Assembly: GCA_018697095.1 (NCBI GenBank)
Contig: JABHSG010000003.1
Span: 285,505-349,504, forward strand
Direction: 5' to 3'
Source: an archaeon
Lineage (GTDB): Archaea; Nanobdellota; Nanobdellia; Woesearchaeales; GW2011-AR9
Length of the DNA: 64,000 nucleotides
In this document: positions 15,483 through 54,743 of the stretch, in pieces
How positions within the stretch are numbered: the first letter of the stretch is position 1
How the letters are laid out: each line of letters begins with the position of its first letter
The notes under the pieces: model-generated
Told to the model about the DNA's origin: nothing
Databases searched by the model: none
What the model saw: the letters and a program-made list of their open reading frames with translations, nothing else
Made by a program: the position numbers and the translations under genes

Positions 15483-16373
15483 GTGGCAGATAGAATCTTA
15501 ACAGAAAATAACCCAAATAATCAAAATAACAGCATTTCTATTTTTGAAGACAAACAAGTTCGTAAAATTTGGCACAATGATGAGTGGTGGTTCTCAGTAG
15601 TAGATATTGTAGGAGTACTTACTGGAAGTCCAGATGGAAGAAATTACTGGAAAGTTCTTAAACATCGCTTAAACAAAGAAGGAAGCGAGGTGGTTACAAA
15701 TTGTAACCAACTGAAATTATCAGCTTCAGATGGAAAATCCTACAAGACAGATTGCTGTAACACAGAAGGTGCCTTTCGTATCATCCAATCAATTCCTTCT
15801 AAAAATGCTGAACATTTCAAATTATGGCTAGCTAAAACAGGTTATGAAAGAATTCAAGAAATAGAAAATCCTGAACTTGCAAGAATCAGGGCCAGAAAAT
15901 ACTATGAAACAAAAGGTTATCCAAAAGATTGGATTAATCAAAGAGTAGATTCAATTGAAGCTCGACAGAATCTTACCAAAGAATGGAAACAGCGTGATGT
16001 CAAAGAAGGAAAAGAGTTTGCTATTCTCACAAATGAAATTCATAAGGCTACTTTTGATAAAGATGTAAAAGAACATAAAGAGCACAAAAATCTACCAATA
16101 AAAAACAAAAACCTAAACCTTAGGGACAACATGACTAAACTAGAGTTAGCATTCGCAAAACTTGCAGAAACAGCAACAAAGGAAATTGCCAAAGCAAAAG
16201 ACGCCCAAGGGTTTAACCAAAACAAAACTGCAGCCCATAAGGGTGGTACAATAGCAGGAAACGCAAGAAAGGCACTAGAAAAAGAAACAAATACTATTGT
16301 TATAAGCAAAAACAATTCTCAGCATCTTGTAGAAACAAAACAAATCAAGAAGATAAAAAACAATAAAATCTAA
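15483..16373 (+). CDS. Bro-N domain protein, DinD-like (DNA-damage-inducible protein D / phage antirepressor-like)
   Basis: N-terminal Bro-N signature (ISIFEDKQVRKIWHNDEWWFSVVDIVGVL); C-terminal half resembles the E. coli DinD C-terminal region. Confidence 0.55.
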   Translation: MADRILTENNPNNQNNSISIFEDKQVRKIWHNDEWWFSVVDIVGVLTGSPDGRNYWKVLKHRLNKEGSEVVTNCNQLKLSASDGKSYKTDCCNTEGAFRIIQSIPSKNAEHFKLWLAKTGYERIQEIENPELARIRARKYYETKGYPKDWINQRVDSIEARQNLTKEWKQRDVKEGKEFAILTNEIHKATFDKDVKEHKEHKNLPIKNKNLNLRDNMTKLELAFAKLAETATKEIAKAKDAQGFNQNKTAAHKGGTIAGNARKALEKETNTIVISKNNSQHLVETKQIKKIKNNKI

Positions 16374-19455: not shown

Positions 19456-20256
19456 TCAACTTCTTACATTATATCCAATTCTAAACAGATACGTTGCCCA
19501 AAAAAAGAACAAGGTAGTCAAACCCAAAAGTACCAGCAAACTAATCCAAACTGGGCTGTAACTAATCCCTAAAAATCCATATCTGAATGCATCTACAATG
19601 TAATATATCGGATTAAACAAACTAACTGTCTTCCAAAAAGAAGGCAACATATCAATTGAGTAAAATACTCCACCTAAATATGTGAGCGGAGTTACAACAA
19701 ATACAGCAAACACATTCATCTGATCAAAACTTTGCGCCCATAATGCAGTCACAATTCCAGCAAGACCAAACAAAAGTGATGTCAAAACCATTACAGTCAC
19801 AATCACAAATATGTTACTAATAGTCAAACCAGCAAAAAACGATCCAATAAAGATTGTCCCAAGCGCTACAATTACTCCTCTAACTAAACAAGAAAGACAT
19901 ATTGCTCCAATAATACTCATGTAAGATATTGGTGCCACAAGAAGTTCTTGGATATTTCCAGCGAACTTACTAATATAAAGTGAAGCTGAACTGTTAGCGT
20001 AACTTGCACTAATAACTCCCATAATAATCAAACCTGGGAAAATAAAAGAAAGATACGATACACCACCAATCTCAGTAATACGTGAACCAAGACTATACCC
20101 AAAGATCAAAATGTAAAGTAGTGATGTGATGATTGGAGGAACTAATGTCTGTTTCCAAACTCGAAGTAAGCGCCTAACTTCTCGATCAGCAAGGCTCCAA
20201 AAAGCAGTCCATTCTTTGCCATCTACTCCTAAACTATGATTTTTATTTTCTGCCAT
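19456..20256 (-). CDS. ABC-2-type transporter permease
   Basis: 266 aa with six predicted TM helices; immediately downstream of the ABC ATPase gene. Confidence 0.8.
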   Translation of the reverse strand: MAENKNHSLGVDGKEWTAFWSLADREVRRLLRVWKQTLVPPIITSLLYILIFGYSLGSRITEIGGVSYLSFIFPGLIIMGVISASYANSSASLYISKFAGNIQELLVAPISYMSIIGAICLSCLVRGVIVALGTIFIGSFFAGLTISNIFVIVTVMVLTSLLFGLAGIVTALWAQSFDQMNVFAVFVVTPLTYLGGVFYSIDMLPSFWKTVSLFNPIYYIVDAFRYGFLGISYSPVWISLLVLLGLTTLFFFWATYLFRIGYNVRS

Positions 20257-20272
20257 AATAATTCCAATTATT

Positions 20273-20330
20273 TCTTACAATGTAAACTTTGTTTACATGT
20301 ACAAGTGAGTTAGTTCACTTTGTATTTGTC
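20273..20330. repeat. bipartite palindromic element, copy A
   Basis: Same core as 41127..41182; lies between the ABC ATPase stop (20315) and permease start (20256), overlapping the last codons of the ATPase gene. Confidence 0.85.
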
Positions 20331-21274
20331 AATTTTACAAATATATCTTCAAGTCTTGTTTGCCGCATTTCAATTTTTTCAACAGGCAAATCAATAATAC
20401 GTTTCAAAAATTTCTTATAATCAAAATCTCCTTTTGGTACTCGCACAATAAGCTCCTTGCCACGTGCTTCAACTGGGTAACCAAATTGCTCAGAAGACAA
20501 TTTTTTAATTGCAGAAGATAAAGTCACTACAATCTCTTGTGATCCAAAATCCTTCATAATCTTGTCTTTAGAATCAAGAGCTATAATTTTCCCATTATTG
20601 ATAATGGCAATTCGTGAACAAAGCTGCTGTGCTTCTTCAATGTAATGTGTTGTCAAAAAAATAGTTTTCCCAGCAAGATTCAACTTACGTACATATTCCC
20701 AAATGCTACGTCTGGATTCCACGTCAACGCCTGCTGTTGGTTCATCAAGTATCAATATGTCAGGGTTATGTAAAAGAGCACGTGCAATCATCAGTTTACG
20801 TTTCATTCCACCACTTAGCTGCATCACTTTCGCATCTCGCTTGGACCATAAACCAAGTTCATGAAGTAAACTATCAACTCGAGCAATTCTAGCAGTTCCA
20901 CTCAATCCAAAATAGCCAGCGTTAAAAAGTAAAACCTGGCGAACTTTCTCAAATTTGTCCATGTTAAGTTCTTGGGGAACAAGCCCAATACGCGATCGCG
21001 CCAATTTATAATCAGATTCAACATCAGATCCAAAAACACGAACTTCGCCTGAAGTCTTATTCACAAGTCCACAAAGTGACCCAATAGTACTAGATTTTCC
21101 TGCCCCATTAGGTCCAAGTAGCGCAAAGAATTCTCCAGGCATTATGTCTAAACTAATTCCACTCACTGCACTTAATTTCCCATACTTCTTAACTAAATTC
21201 TTAATATGAATAGCTGGTACAACCTTACTAGCATCATCTTTTTTTACAGAAATAACCTTCTCCTCTTTCCCCAT
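20315..21274 (-). CDS. ABC transporter ATP-binding protein; start set at internal Met (MGKEEK)
   Basis: Walker A GPNGAGKSS, ABC signature LSGGMKRKL, Walker B ILILDEPT. Confidence 0.9.
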   Translation of the reverse strand: MGKEEKVISVKKDDASKVVPAIHIKNLVKKYGKLSAVSGISLDIMPGEFFALLGPNGAGKSSTIGSLCGLVNKTSGEVRVFGSDVESDYKLARSRIGLVPQELNMDKFEKVRQVLLFNAGYFGLSGTARIARVDSLLHELGLWSKRDAKVMQLSGGMKRKLMIARALLHNPDILILDEPTAGVDVESRRSIWEYVRKLNLAGKTIFLTTHYIEEAQQLCSRIAIINNGKIIALDSKDKIMKDFGSQEIVVTLSSAIKKLSSEQFGYPVEARGKELIVRVPKGDFDYKKFLKRIIDLPVEKIEMRQTRLEDIFVKLTNTK

Positions 21275-39530: not shown

Positions 39531-39629
39531 GCCCCGGTGGCTTAGCGGTTATAGCAGTCGGCTGTTATTCGTATTAATTCAATACGACAAGATACCGACA
39601 GATCGCCAGTTCAAATCTGGCCCGGGGCG
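39531..39629 (+). tRNA. tRNA-Asn (anticodon GUU) with ~26-nt intron in the anticodon loop
   Basis: Acceptor GCCCCGG/CCGGGGC; D arm GCU(U)-AGCGGUUA-(U)AGC; anticodon stem GUCGG...CCGAC with loop CUGUUA then a hairpin-containing intron; T arm GCCAG-UUCAAAU-CUGGC; discriminator G. Confidence 0.75.
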
Positions 39630-40526: not shown

Positions 40527-40976
40527 GTGGCGATCAAAAAAAGATCAAGTAAAAGATCAACTTCCAAACGTAGTTCTGTAAAAAGAGCTCCGGCAAGACT
40601 TTCAGACGCAAGTTCATTTATTCAAAAAGAAAAAATGGAATTGCACAAAGTAGCACATTACTGTTTTTTAATAGGGCTTTTAATTGCACTAGTAGCAGGA
40701 CTTCCATGGTTTGCAAAAACTATTGATTCTCGTGCACTTATGACAACACTAGTTCTTCTAGGTTTCATTGTGGGTTTATTCAATCTAACAACTAAAGATA
40801 CAATGCCATTTTTAGTGGCATCAATTGCACTTATGCTGGCTGGAATTGTAAATCTTTCTTTAATTCCAGTAATTGGTGAAGCTTTGCGTTCAATGCTTAG
40901 TAATATTGTTGTCTTTGTGGTTCCTGGAGCAATCGTTCTGGCAGTGAAAACTGTATATACTCTTGCTTCTAAGTAA
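40527..40976 (+). CDS. membrane protein with Lys/Ser-rich N-terminus; GTG start
   Basis: GTG preceded by GAGGTGATAGG; three to four TM helices; the 3' end is duplicated downstream. Confidence 0.5.
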   Translation: MAIKKRSSKRSTSKRSSVKRAPARLSDASSFIQKEKMELHKVAHYCFLIGLLIALVAGLPWFAKTIDSRALMTTLVLLGFIVGLFNLTTKDTMPFLVASIALMLAGIVNLSLIPVIGEALRSMLSNIVVFVVPGAIVLAVKTVYTLASK

Positions 40977-41127
40977 GCAAACTTTTTTCTTTTATTCTTT
41001 TTCCTTTATTTTGCAAGACTAAACGAACGTAGTGAGTGCATGTCTGCTCAGATGTCAACCGGCTGTGGCAGTTGGCAGTGAAAACTGTATATACTCTTGC
41101 TTCTAAGTAAGCAAACTTTTTTCTTTC
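40941..41127. repeat. 53-bp perfect direct repeat (40941-40993 and 41075-41127) flanking an 81-bp spacer
   Basis: GGCAGTGAAAACTGTATATACTCTTGCTTCTAAGTAAGCAAACTTTTTTCTTT occurs twice; the first copy contains the stop codon of the 40527..40976 gene. Confidence 0.9.
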
Positions 41128-41182
41128 TTATTTTACAATGTAAACTTTGTTTACATGTACAAGTGAGCTTGCTCACTTTGTA
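41127..41182. repeat. bipartite palindromic element, copy B (TGTAAAC-TTT-GTTTACA plus CAAGTGAGC-TT-GCTCACTTG)
   Basis: 34-nt identical core TACAATGTAAACTTTGTTTACATGTACAAGTGAG shared with 20273..20330. Confidence 0.85.
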
Positions 41183-41323
41183 TCTAAATTTCTACTTTTT
41201 CAACATTAAAAATAAGCTCATTTTATTTCTTTTGTCCTCTAAAAATTCCTTTTTTCTCTACTCTTTAAGACTACACAATATTTATAAGGCAGTTAGTATG
41301 TAGTCATAATTGAGGTGGTACTT

Positions 41324-41449
41324 ATGCAGAAATTGCATTTGAACTGTGGGGCATGTAAATTTCAATTTACAAGTTTGTTTTTTTCAGGAGTTTCTGGAGC
41401 ATTCTGTCCACATTGTAGGTCAAAGGTAACAAACCTTGTGACTTCATAA
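41324..41449 (+). CDS. small zinc-ribbon protein (41 aa); not in ORF track
   Basis: GAGGTGG RBS then MQKLHLNCGACKFQFTSLFFSGVSGAFCPHCRSKVTNLVTS with CxxC-x18-CxxC. Confidence 0.3.
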   Translation: MQKLHLNCGACKFQFTSLFFSGVSGAFCPHCRSKVTNLVTS

Positions 41450-41485: not shown

Positions 41486-42361
41486 ATGAAGCGCATTTTT
41501 TCTTTTTCAAAAATAAAACCAACTATTAATTTATTTCTAAAAGGTCTTCTGATGGGCGCAGCTGACATTGTGCCTGGAGTTTCTGGTGGGACTATTGCGT
41601 TTATCGTAGGAATCTATGAAAGGCTTCTAACAGCAATTTCAAATGTACTTCCAATCACAAAATCAATTTTCCAAACAAGAACTATTCAAAATACAAAAGC
41701 CCAAATAAAAAATCTTGATTGGCAATTTTTAATCCCTCTTGGGTCAGGTGTCGTGGTCTCTTTTCTCTCTCTCTCATCACTTATGACTCATCTACTAACA
41801 AATTACTCTGGTCAAACTTTTGCTTTTTTCACAGGACTTATTTTAGCTTCAGCCGGGATTCTAATCACTCATGCAAGAACTCACAAATTAAAACAATTTA
41901 TTCTAGTAATTCTTGGATTCATCGTAGCTTACCTAATTACTAGCCTAACAGCAACAGCACTCCCTTCTACTCTTCCAGTAGTTTTCATATCAGGAATAAT
42001 TGCGATTTGCGCTATGCTCTTACCTGGGATTTCAGGGTCATATCTTTTAGTTGTTCTAGGCCAATATCAATTCATCATTACTGCCATTCATGAAAAAAAC
42101 CTCAAAATCATCTCTACGTTTGGAGTTGGAGCAATCATCGGACTTTTAAGTATTGCAAAACTTCTAAATCATCTTTTTAAAAAGTTTCATGACAATATGA
42201 TTTACATTCTTACTGGTGTAATGCTTGGTGCCCTAAAAGCCCCCATTTTAAACATAACGCAAAGCAGCATTGCTCTTCCACAAACAATTTTATTCATCAT
42301 TTTAGGGATTATCCCTATCATTTCAATCAGTTTTCTTCGTCGCCAAAAGAGCAATTCTTAA
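41486..42361 (+). CDS. DUF368-family membrane protein (candidate polyprenyl-phosphate transporter, PopT-like)
   Basis: Two internal repeats carrying VPGVSGGTIAFIVG and LPGISGSYLLVVLG, characteristic of DUF368. Confidence 0.75.
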   Translation: MKRIFSFSKIKPTINLFLKGLLMGAADIVPGVSGGTIAFIVGIYERLLTAISNVLPITKSIFQTRTIQNTKAQIKNLDWQFLIPLGSGVVVSFLSLSSLMTHLLTNYSGQTFAFFTGLILASAGILITHARTHKLKQFILVILGFIVAYLITSLTATALPSTLPVVFISGIIAICAMLLPGISGSYLLVVLGQYQFIITAIHEKNLKIISTFGVGAIIGLLSIAKLLNHLFKKFHDNMIYILTGVMLGALKAPILNITQSSIALPQTILFIILGIIPIISISFLRRQKSNS

Positions 42362-52950: not shown

Positions 52951-52967
52951 TTTTTTTTTTTTTTTTT
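52951..52967 (+). terminator. 17-nt oligo-T tract after the L1-P0-P1 operon
   Basis: Uninterrupted T run about 30 nt after the P1 stop, fitting an archaeal oligo-T terminator. Confidence 0.55.

Positions 52968-54697: not shown

Positions 54698-54743
<46 letters not shown>

Follow-up and report, generated by a model that had tools for sequence, protein, structure and literature searches.

Location and identity of the repeat

The window analysed here is the whole 64-kb stretch of contig JABHSG010000003.1. It belongs to a low-GC (~35 %) DPANN-type archaeon (Woesearchaeota/Nanoarchaeota-like), with Woesearchaeota or Nanoarchaeota proteins as the nearest named homologues, and encodes, among others, Nop10, eIF2-alpha, S27e, L44e, PAC2, TFB and archease. 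Two copies of a short palindromic repeat unit were observed in it. Copy A lies at the junction of two ABC transporter genes (site A) and copy B lies in the spacer downstream of a membrane protein gene (site B).

20275 to 20325, plus strand: copy A of the repeat unit, with palindrome 1 at 20276-20301 and palindrome 2 at 20300-20324
41133 to 41183, plus strand: copy B of the repeat unit, with palindrome 1 at 41134-41159 and palindrome 2 at 41158-41182

A preliminary description of this DNA had reported a repeat at two loci with an exact core of 34 nt, and this was confirmed. The core TACAATGTAAACTTTGTTTACATGTACAAGTGAG has two exact matches in the 64-kb window (20276-20309 and 41134-41167, both on the plus strand), and none of 100 dinucleotide-preserving shuffles contained a match to it, even when up to 3 mismatches were allowed. 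The full repeat unit is 51 nt long and the copies are identical at 48 of the 51 positions (94 %; repeat finder family D14); the location first given was correct, while the extent was a few bases too wide. Both copies have the same orientation and are 20,858 bp apart. When 200-nt segments were aligned, the flanks of the two copies were unrelated and the boundaries of the unit were sharp. The sequence TTATTT to the left of both copies is possibly part of the unit, given a 2-nt indel.

Copy A had the same sequence in 9 of 9 SPAdes and MEGAHIT contigs from different samples, and copy B in 9 of 9 independent assemblies. An assembly artefact is excluded: different samples, assembled independently with SPAdes and MEGAHIT (k141), yielded contigs with both copies and with both alleles of a neighbouring 134-nt indel.

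Structure of the repeat unit

The unit consists of two abutting imperfect palindromes of 25-26 nt each, which have a central TA in common and whose centres are ~23 bp apart. Palindrome 1 of copy A reads TACAATGTAAAC-TTT-GTTTACATGTA, with the bulged left arm written as TACA[A]TGTAAAC, and palindrome 2 reads TACAAGTGAG-TTAGT-TCACTTTGTA, with the bulged right arm written as TCAC[T]TTGTA. Palindrome 2 is more perfect in copy B (centre GAGC-TT-GCTC). All four arms are variants of one half-site, TACAA(N)GTRARC, in the order -> <- -> <-, and the termini of the unit are therefore imperfect inverted repeats. These are short, and the two outer half-sites, TTACAATGTAAAC and ATACAAAGTGAAC, agree in 10 positions out of 13.

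Both hairpins of the preliminary description do fold, on either strand and as RNA (-12.8 to -16.4 kcal/mol, z = -2.5 to -3.8) as well as DNA (-8.7 to -10.5 kcal/mol), with two hairpins per strand. Their details had to be revised. Hairpin 1, described with a 7-bp stem, has 8 bp and then 3 more bp past a 1-nt bulge. With the right arm GCTCACTTTG in copy B, the 9-bp stem quoted for the second hairpin requires a 1-nt bulge, and the 2-nt loop ascribed to this hairpin cannot form.

The three differences between the copies are all confined to a 5-nt stretch at palindrome 2's apex (clustering p = 0.014), so that either the stems or half-sites are constrained or the copying was very recent. When the 19 pairs of the two-hairpin structure were counted, none had changed on both sides, and a single pair showed a one-sided change, from G-C in B to G.U in A or the reverse; the remaining two differences are loop positions. 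The covariation claimed for the second hairpin was thus not found (0 of 19 pairs compensatory), and the comparison of A and B tells only that the stems are unchanged.

No relevant Rfam match for the element was obtained at gathering thresholds or at a permissive E ≤ 5 and, with covariation absent as well, a known RNA family was set aside. A tRNA fragment or CRISPR repeat is not supported either (AT-rich composition, no array, and the only tRNA lies elsewhere).

The ABC transporter junction (site A)

The following features are found at site A.

20315 to 21274, minus strand: ABC transporter ATPase gene, 319 aa (PF00005)
19456 to 20256, minus strand: ABC-2 permease gene, 266 aa, with its ATG at 20256
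20220 to 20230, minus strand: relic permease translation start, with a Shine-Dalgarno sequence AGGAG at 20230-20226 and ATG at 20222-20220

Copy A had been placed between the ATPase stop and the permease start, overlapping the last ATPase codons. This holds, with the correction that the genes lie on the minus strand. The end of the ATPase gene (ACA AAG TGA, 20323-20315, with the stop TGA at 20317-20315) lies inside palindrome 2, and the last two sense codons and the stop codon are supplied by copy A. The resulting C-terminus (...FVKLTNTK*) is 2-4 residues shorter than those of relatives.

The start of the permease is altered as well. Its ATG is 19 nt from the end of copy A and has no Shine-Dalgarno sequence before it, and the N-terminus is extended by 11-12 residues in comparison with relatives. 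The relic AGGAG and ATG align with the start codon of the relatives; here this ATG, 34 nt downstream of the working one, is out of frame by one base, and the open reading frame (ORF) that it starts has only 26 codons. The frame would be restored if the AAA run that directly follows GCA had one A more (M-A-K-E-W-T-A-F-W, compared with M-S-R-E-L-I-A-F-W in relative L022). The region of the working ATG, ATGGCAGAAAAT (20256), and that of the relic, ATGGCAAAGAAT, are alike at 10 of 12 positions, and this likeness may be the trace of a small local duplication that occurred as the junction was remodelled.

The same gene pair was compared in relatives. In L025 and L026 (permease 66 % identical) the two genes share 4 nt (ATGA), and in L029 (permease 69 % identical) 8 nt lie between them; none of the three has the element. 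In L022 and L023, the closest relatives at this site (permease 78 % identical), a 297-nt gap holds an unrelated structured insert of ~250 nt with 20-nt terminal inverted repeats.

This different insert (L022 9712-9985; also L023 6365-6640, and L024) is GC-rich, ~250-275 nt long and folds with -94 kcal/mol. Its perfect terminal inverted repeats of ~20 nt are ACAAAAAAGATTAATGCTGTC and GACAGCATTAATCTTTTTGT in L022, and no Rfam match was found for it. It could be a transposable element of the miniature inverted-repeat type (MITE) or a structured RNA. Its presence suggests that the ATPase/permease junction is a recurrent insertion site.

The spacer downstream of the membrane protein gene (site B)

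The features around copy B are the following.

40527 to 40976, plus strand: gene for a 149-aa membrane protein, upstream of copy B
40939 to 41126, plus strand: polymorphic block by copy B, with 54-nt perfect direct repeats (40939-40992 and 41073-41126) around an 80-nt insert (40993-41072; family D12)
41324 to 41449, plus strand: zinc-ribbon ORF (CxxC...CxxC) of 41 codons downstream of copy B, with TATA at 41281-41288 and a GAGGTGG Shine-Dalgarno sequence
41486 to 42361, plus strand: DUF368 membrane protein gene (PF04018), the synteny anchor for site B

Copy B is preceded by the terminator of the 149-aa gene, a hairpin (TTGCTT 40963-40968 / AAGCAA 40976-40981) followed by T6 at 40983-40988. It lies beyond this terminator and ~100 nt upstream of the next TATA, and overlaps no promoter.

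The site B relatives L027, L034 and L035 have a membrane protein that is 71-78 % identical, and none of them has the element. They all keep the stop codon, the T-rich terminator (ACTTTTTT(T)CTTT...), the TATA box, the GAGGTGG Shine-Dalgarno sequence, the zinc-ribbon ORF and DUF368. When the spacers were aligned using MAFFT, the entire element fell in a gap in all three, and in L027 the conserved flanks ACTTTTTTCTTTCTT and TAAATTTCTA are only 8 nt apart. Judged from the alignments at sites A and B, both copies are lineage-specific insertions.

The zinc-ribbon ORF, kept upstream of DUF368 in these three relatives without the element, is below the 50-aa cut-off of the ORF listing, and no gene is called there in L013-L021. 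In L027 a tyrosine integrase and its neighbours, including an HVO_A0114-family protein, are found upstream of the orthologous membrane protein and DUF368 genes (1557-2798), and with this integrase the neighbourhood of site B may be an integration hotspot in the clade.

The spacer by copy B is polymorphic within the species. Through the 54-nt repeat, the final 12 codons of the 149-aa gene and its terminator are present twice, and the 80-nt insert is GC-richer. This 134-nt block is absent in L017 and L021 and present in seven other loci, and each allele occurs in both SPAdes and MEGAHIT k141 assemblies. In strains lacking the 134 nt, copy B begins 30 nt after the stop codon. The block ends 7 nt from copy B, where several contigs break. 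No second copy of the 80-nt insert was found in the window or IMG/VR. One public contig (ERZ4200980 NODE_5599; L019 1-15) opens with the Illumina adapter ACGCTCTTCCGATCT joined directly to the spacer by copy B.

A candidate promoter in palindrome 1

A position weight matrix for the promoter motif was built from the upstream regions of 64 genes, the permease being excluded, and its consensus is AAAGCTTTATAAAC. Most genes of the window have AAAGCTTTATAAA(C) upstream of them, where it begins 33-39 nt ahead of the start codon; the consensus is strong and genome-specific, and was seen upstream of ~20 of the 64 genes. A motif at this distance from the ATG implies mRNAs that would be largely leaderless. 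About one third of the genes appear leaderless, and the others have a GGTG/GAGG Shine-Dalgarno sequence instead.

One such site was located in copy A.

20278 to 20291, minus strand: site CAAAGTTTACATTG, resembling a B recognition element and TATA box (BRE/TATA), inside palindrome 1 and beginning 35 nt upstream of the permease ATG

Palindrome 1 has the sequence CAAAG-TTTACATT on the strand of the genes. The position -35 is the modal promoter position of this genome (modal range -33 to -39). The site scores 5.1 bits, which is in the 99.65th percentile of all positions, and the chance of an equal score within the 7 modal positions is ≤ 0.05 (intergenic background). The match is suggestive, although not proof, of copy A now serving as the promoter of the permease.

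Copy number and distribution

Searches within this genome covered ~81 kb, which is the window and ~17 kb of extra flanks (L032 and L033). In the window no other composite element and no other single full palindrome was found, even in degenerate form, and no insertion sequence (IS) is present in the sampled DNA. The repeat looks like a low-copy, species-specific one and not like a conserved regulatory signal. As for a widespread family, which the preliminary description had left to a genome-wide count, the lack of further copies in the data searched and of conservation in relatives leans instead to a recent local copying event.

Origin of the repeat

The loops, spacers and the junction between the palindromes are near-identical in the two copies, the boundaries are at the feet of the palindromes and two orthologous sites are empty. 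For these reasons the repeat appears to be a discrete unit that was inserted at least twice in this lineage, and its best reading is accordingly an insertion element of the type of repetitive extragenic palindromes (REP) and bacterial interspersed mosaic elements (BIME), of MITEs or of IS200/IS605 ends. That the unit is a miniature, non-coding, REP/MITE-like palindromic insertion element is the explanation we favour, with about an even chance of being right. Among the three roles first proposed, a miniature repeat element fits best (sharp boundaries, unrelated flanks and empty orthologous sites). An operator would not account for 48/51 identity that extends to loops and junctions, and the site is not conserved in relatives. 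A terminator or attenuator is poorly supported in view of the orientation and context of the copies, as set out below.

On the favoured explanation, an element of ~49-51 bp would have been inserted or copied into two unrelated chromosomal spots after the split from the known relatives. The two hairpins, which could be extruded from either strand, would provide an architecture for transposases that bind hairpins or inverted repeats, as with REP/BIME, IS200/IS605 ends and MITEs; both this enzyme and the mechanism are inferred. At site A the element would have landed in a formerly overlapping ATPase/permease junction, donating ATPase codons and a stop and separating the genes. More speculatively, palindrome 1 may then have been recruited to drive the transcription of a leaderless permease mRNA. 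At site B the element would be harmless between a terminator and the next promoter.

Several observations weigh against this explanation. Only two copies were found in the ~81 kb by scans with a half-site regular expression, hairpin searches and BLAST-short, which otherwise gave isolated half-sites. Exact-pattern scans of 185,579 GTDB species representatives gave 0 matches, whether the pattern was palindrome 1 plus the junction or palindrome 2. Palindrome 1 had 1 unrelated match in JGI metagenome contigs (L012) and 2 unrelated matches in IMG/VR, where palindrome 2 had 0; plasmids gave 0 matches, and phages no more than a chance match of 20 nt (Vibrio ICP1 phages). Neither a transposase nor an integrase is encoded in the window and its flanks. 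Within the species, assemblies of both sites included no allele lacking the element, and all cluster members are of equal protein length. The unit starts and ends with TA and its flanks are T-rich; no target-site duplication is demonstrable, the empty sites of the relatives being too diverged to define one. Two copies can also come from one-off templated repair with no dedicated mobility. As regards the promoter, the match is moderate (p ≤ 0.05 only; 5.1 bits compared with a median of ~7 for the best upstream sites), and in copy B the identical site is directed at the 3' end of the preceding gene, with no ORF in front of it. The existence of both copies can therefore not be due to promoter activity.

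One unrelated viral contig has a similar palindrome. IMG/VR genome 3300028888_001860 (L011 7725-7745 and 8245-8266) carries at least 2 copies of ATGTAAAC-TAA-GTTTACA. This is probably a phage operator; its likeness to palindrome 1 is a chance match.

The alternative that deserves most attention is a non-mobile, one-off duplication, in which double-strand-break repair or template switching made one or two further copies of a patch without function, no dedicated transposition machinery being involved and the palindromes being incidental or prone to copying. The presence of two copies only in the sampled DNA, with none in any collection and no transposase nearby, speaks for it, and the 134-nt indel with its 54-nt direct repeats by copy B shows that illegitimate recombination has occurred in this very spacer. 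However, both sites are empty in relatives, which requires at least two insertions of the unit, or one import and one copy; in addition, the unit is cleanly bounded by the feet of its palindromes, and only one loop apex differs between the copies (p = 0.014). We regard it as possible, with a clearly smaller probability than the insertion element. The arrangement of the copies could also suggest attL/attR direct repeats around an integrated element or island of 20.9 kb, given direct repeats of ~51 bp in the same orientation, 20,858 bp apart, with a tRNA gene inside the interval. Yet this interval consists of housekeeping genes (TFB, GatD, AdoHcy hydrolase, dUTPase, tRNA methyltransferase and others) with uniform GC and no integrase or viral genes, and a boundary at A would split an ATPase-permease pair that is adjacent in all relatives. 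Attachment sites of such an island are effectively excluded on these grounds (housekeeping content, no integrase, split ABC gene pair), and we give them almost no weight.

Two functional explanations were also considered. The four related half-sites, with palindrome centres ~23 bp apart, could be an operator bound by a transcription factor as a dimer of dimers, which would co-regulate the ABC permease and a gene near site B. At A the unit overlaps the putative permease promoter, and several helix-turn-helix regulators (TrmB-like, ArsR-like and HTH_3-CBS) are encoded in the window. We consider an operator unlikely: the site is not conserved in relatives at either orthologous position, the identity spans loops, spacers and the inter-palindrome junction, far beyond the need of a binding site, copy B lies away from promoters, and there is neither an adjacent regulator gene nor another full palindrome in the window. 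Still lower is the probability that the hairpins act at the RNA level, as the intercistronic terminator or attenuator of the preliminary description, as a processing site or as a stabiliser of mRNA 3' ends. Folding is better than in shuffled controls (z = -2.5 to -3.8), copy A is between cistrons and copy B after the 3' end of a gene, and the sole stem change keeps pairing on the plus strand (G-C vs G.U). But the transcripts would read the copies in opposite orientations (minus-strand genes at A, a plus-strand gene at B), there is no compensatory change and no Rfam match, and the unit is absent from relatives. Archaeal termination generally relies on oligo-T tracts and not on hairpins; at A the hairpins are followed on the gene strand by GTAAGAAATAATTGG and not by a T-run, and copy B is beyond the conserved hairpin and T6 terminator of the upstream gene itself.

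DPANN genomes are very small and have few recognised repeats or mobile elements, and an insertion that remodels a gene junction would show that evolution by insertion continues there. At A, a new stop codon came with the insertion, which also goes together with a new start codon and with a candidate for a new promoter. A bolder version is that the unit is the smallest known archaeal mobile element, a REP- or IS200-like cassette of DPANN archaea, ~50 bp long, with two hairpins and its own BRE/TATA; on landing in a junction of overlapping genes it would end their translational coupling, and the downstream gene would become a separately transcribed, leaderless unit. This is quite unlikely; if true, operons of streamlined genomes would be rewired by a promoter that is portable. 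With the two copies found and no known mobilising enzyme, the repeat is a modest, species-specific curiosity, which would gain weight only from a genome-wide family, a cognate transposase or promoter activity.

Other features of the window

A tRNA gene with an intron is found at 39531-39629 on the plus strand (99 nt). It scores 56.5 bits with the Rfam tRNA model and was missed by ARAGORN. An (AAT)15 microsatellite (54698-54742) lies ~20 nt upstream of an S-adenosylmethionine synthetase gene, and a T17 homopolymer (52951-52967) lies between a ribosomal P1/P2-like gene and the next gene. Amid housekeeping genes, a protein of 296 aa with a Bro-N domain is encoded at 15483-16373 on the plus strand, and this gene is kept in all assemblies of the species. 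Bro-N is a DNA-binding domain typical of viruses and mobile elements.

Comparison with known systems

The candidate promoter resembles archaeal BRE/TATA promoters of leaderless genes in its position at -35 from a start codon with no Shine-Dalgarno sequence, as in ~1/3 of the genes of this genome; it differs from them in its moderate match and in the copy B site, which faces no gene.

Elements of the IS200/IS605 family are common in archaea, and their derivatives include palindrome-associated transposable elements of haloarchaea. They are no shorter than 100 bp and retain 20-100 nt of specific sequence beyond their hairpins; they insert 3' of a fixed 4-5 nt target and create no target-site duplication. 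The unit resembles IS200/IS605 ends (IS608-type) in having two similar hairpins on the same strand and no long inverted repeats, with both copies in the same orientation. Both copies are also preceded by TTATTT(CT) and TTAC, although with two copies the target and the end of the element are not separable. In contrast to these elements, the unit is shorter, and the sampled DNA contains neither a TnpA nor a TnpB gene. Enzymes of the HUH type recognise hairpins (PMC6006769).

MITEs have been surveyed across prokaryotes (PMC11602168). Our element is like them in the empty sites of relatives and in the stop codon donated at A, and like them it would be non-autonomous; its termini are inverted repeats too, but weak ones. 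It is unlike them in that its ~50 bp is at or below the usual MITE size, its terminal inverted repeats are imperfect (10/13), and it has no demonstrable target-site duplication and no known parent IS. In Correia elements of Neisseria and in Rickettsia palindromic elements (RPE), insertion by or in gene ends can donate stop codons or promoters.

REP, BIME and REPIN sequences are short imperfect palindromes of 20-40 nt that form stem-loops and are often paired, at the 3' ends of genes or within operons (PMC2817692, PMC3733652, PMC3116915). Their copy number is usually > 100 per genome (PMC2817692), and REP sequences have a terminal tag GTAG or CGTC (PMC3733652). The element shares with them the short, imperfect stem-loop palindromes, which are paired, non-coding and sharply bounded. 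Its termini are TTACAA... and ...TTTGTAT, in contrast, with no GTAG or CGTC at either end on either strand. It has two copies in ~81 kb, and no gene for a REP-associated tyrosine transposase (RAYT; Y1/HUH transposase) is present in the window or flanks. The host is an archaeon, whereas REP and RAYT are described in bacteria, and the palindromes of the element abut and are only partly alike instead of being two inverted copies of one REP. Although it is not classed as a REP on this basis, the element works most like REP/BIME sequences or a MITE.

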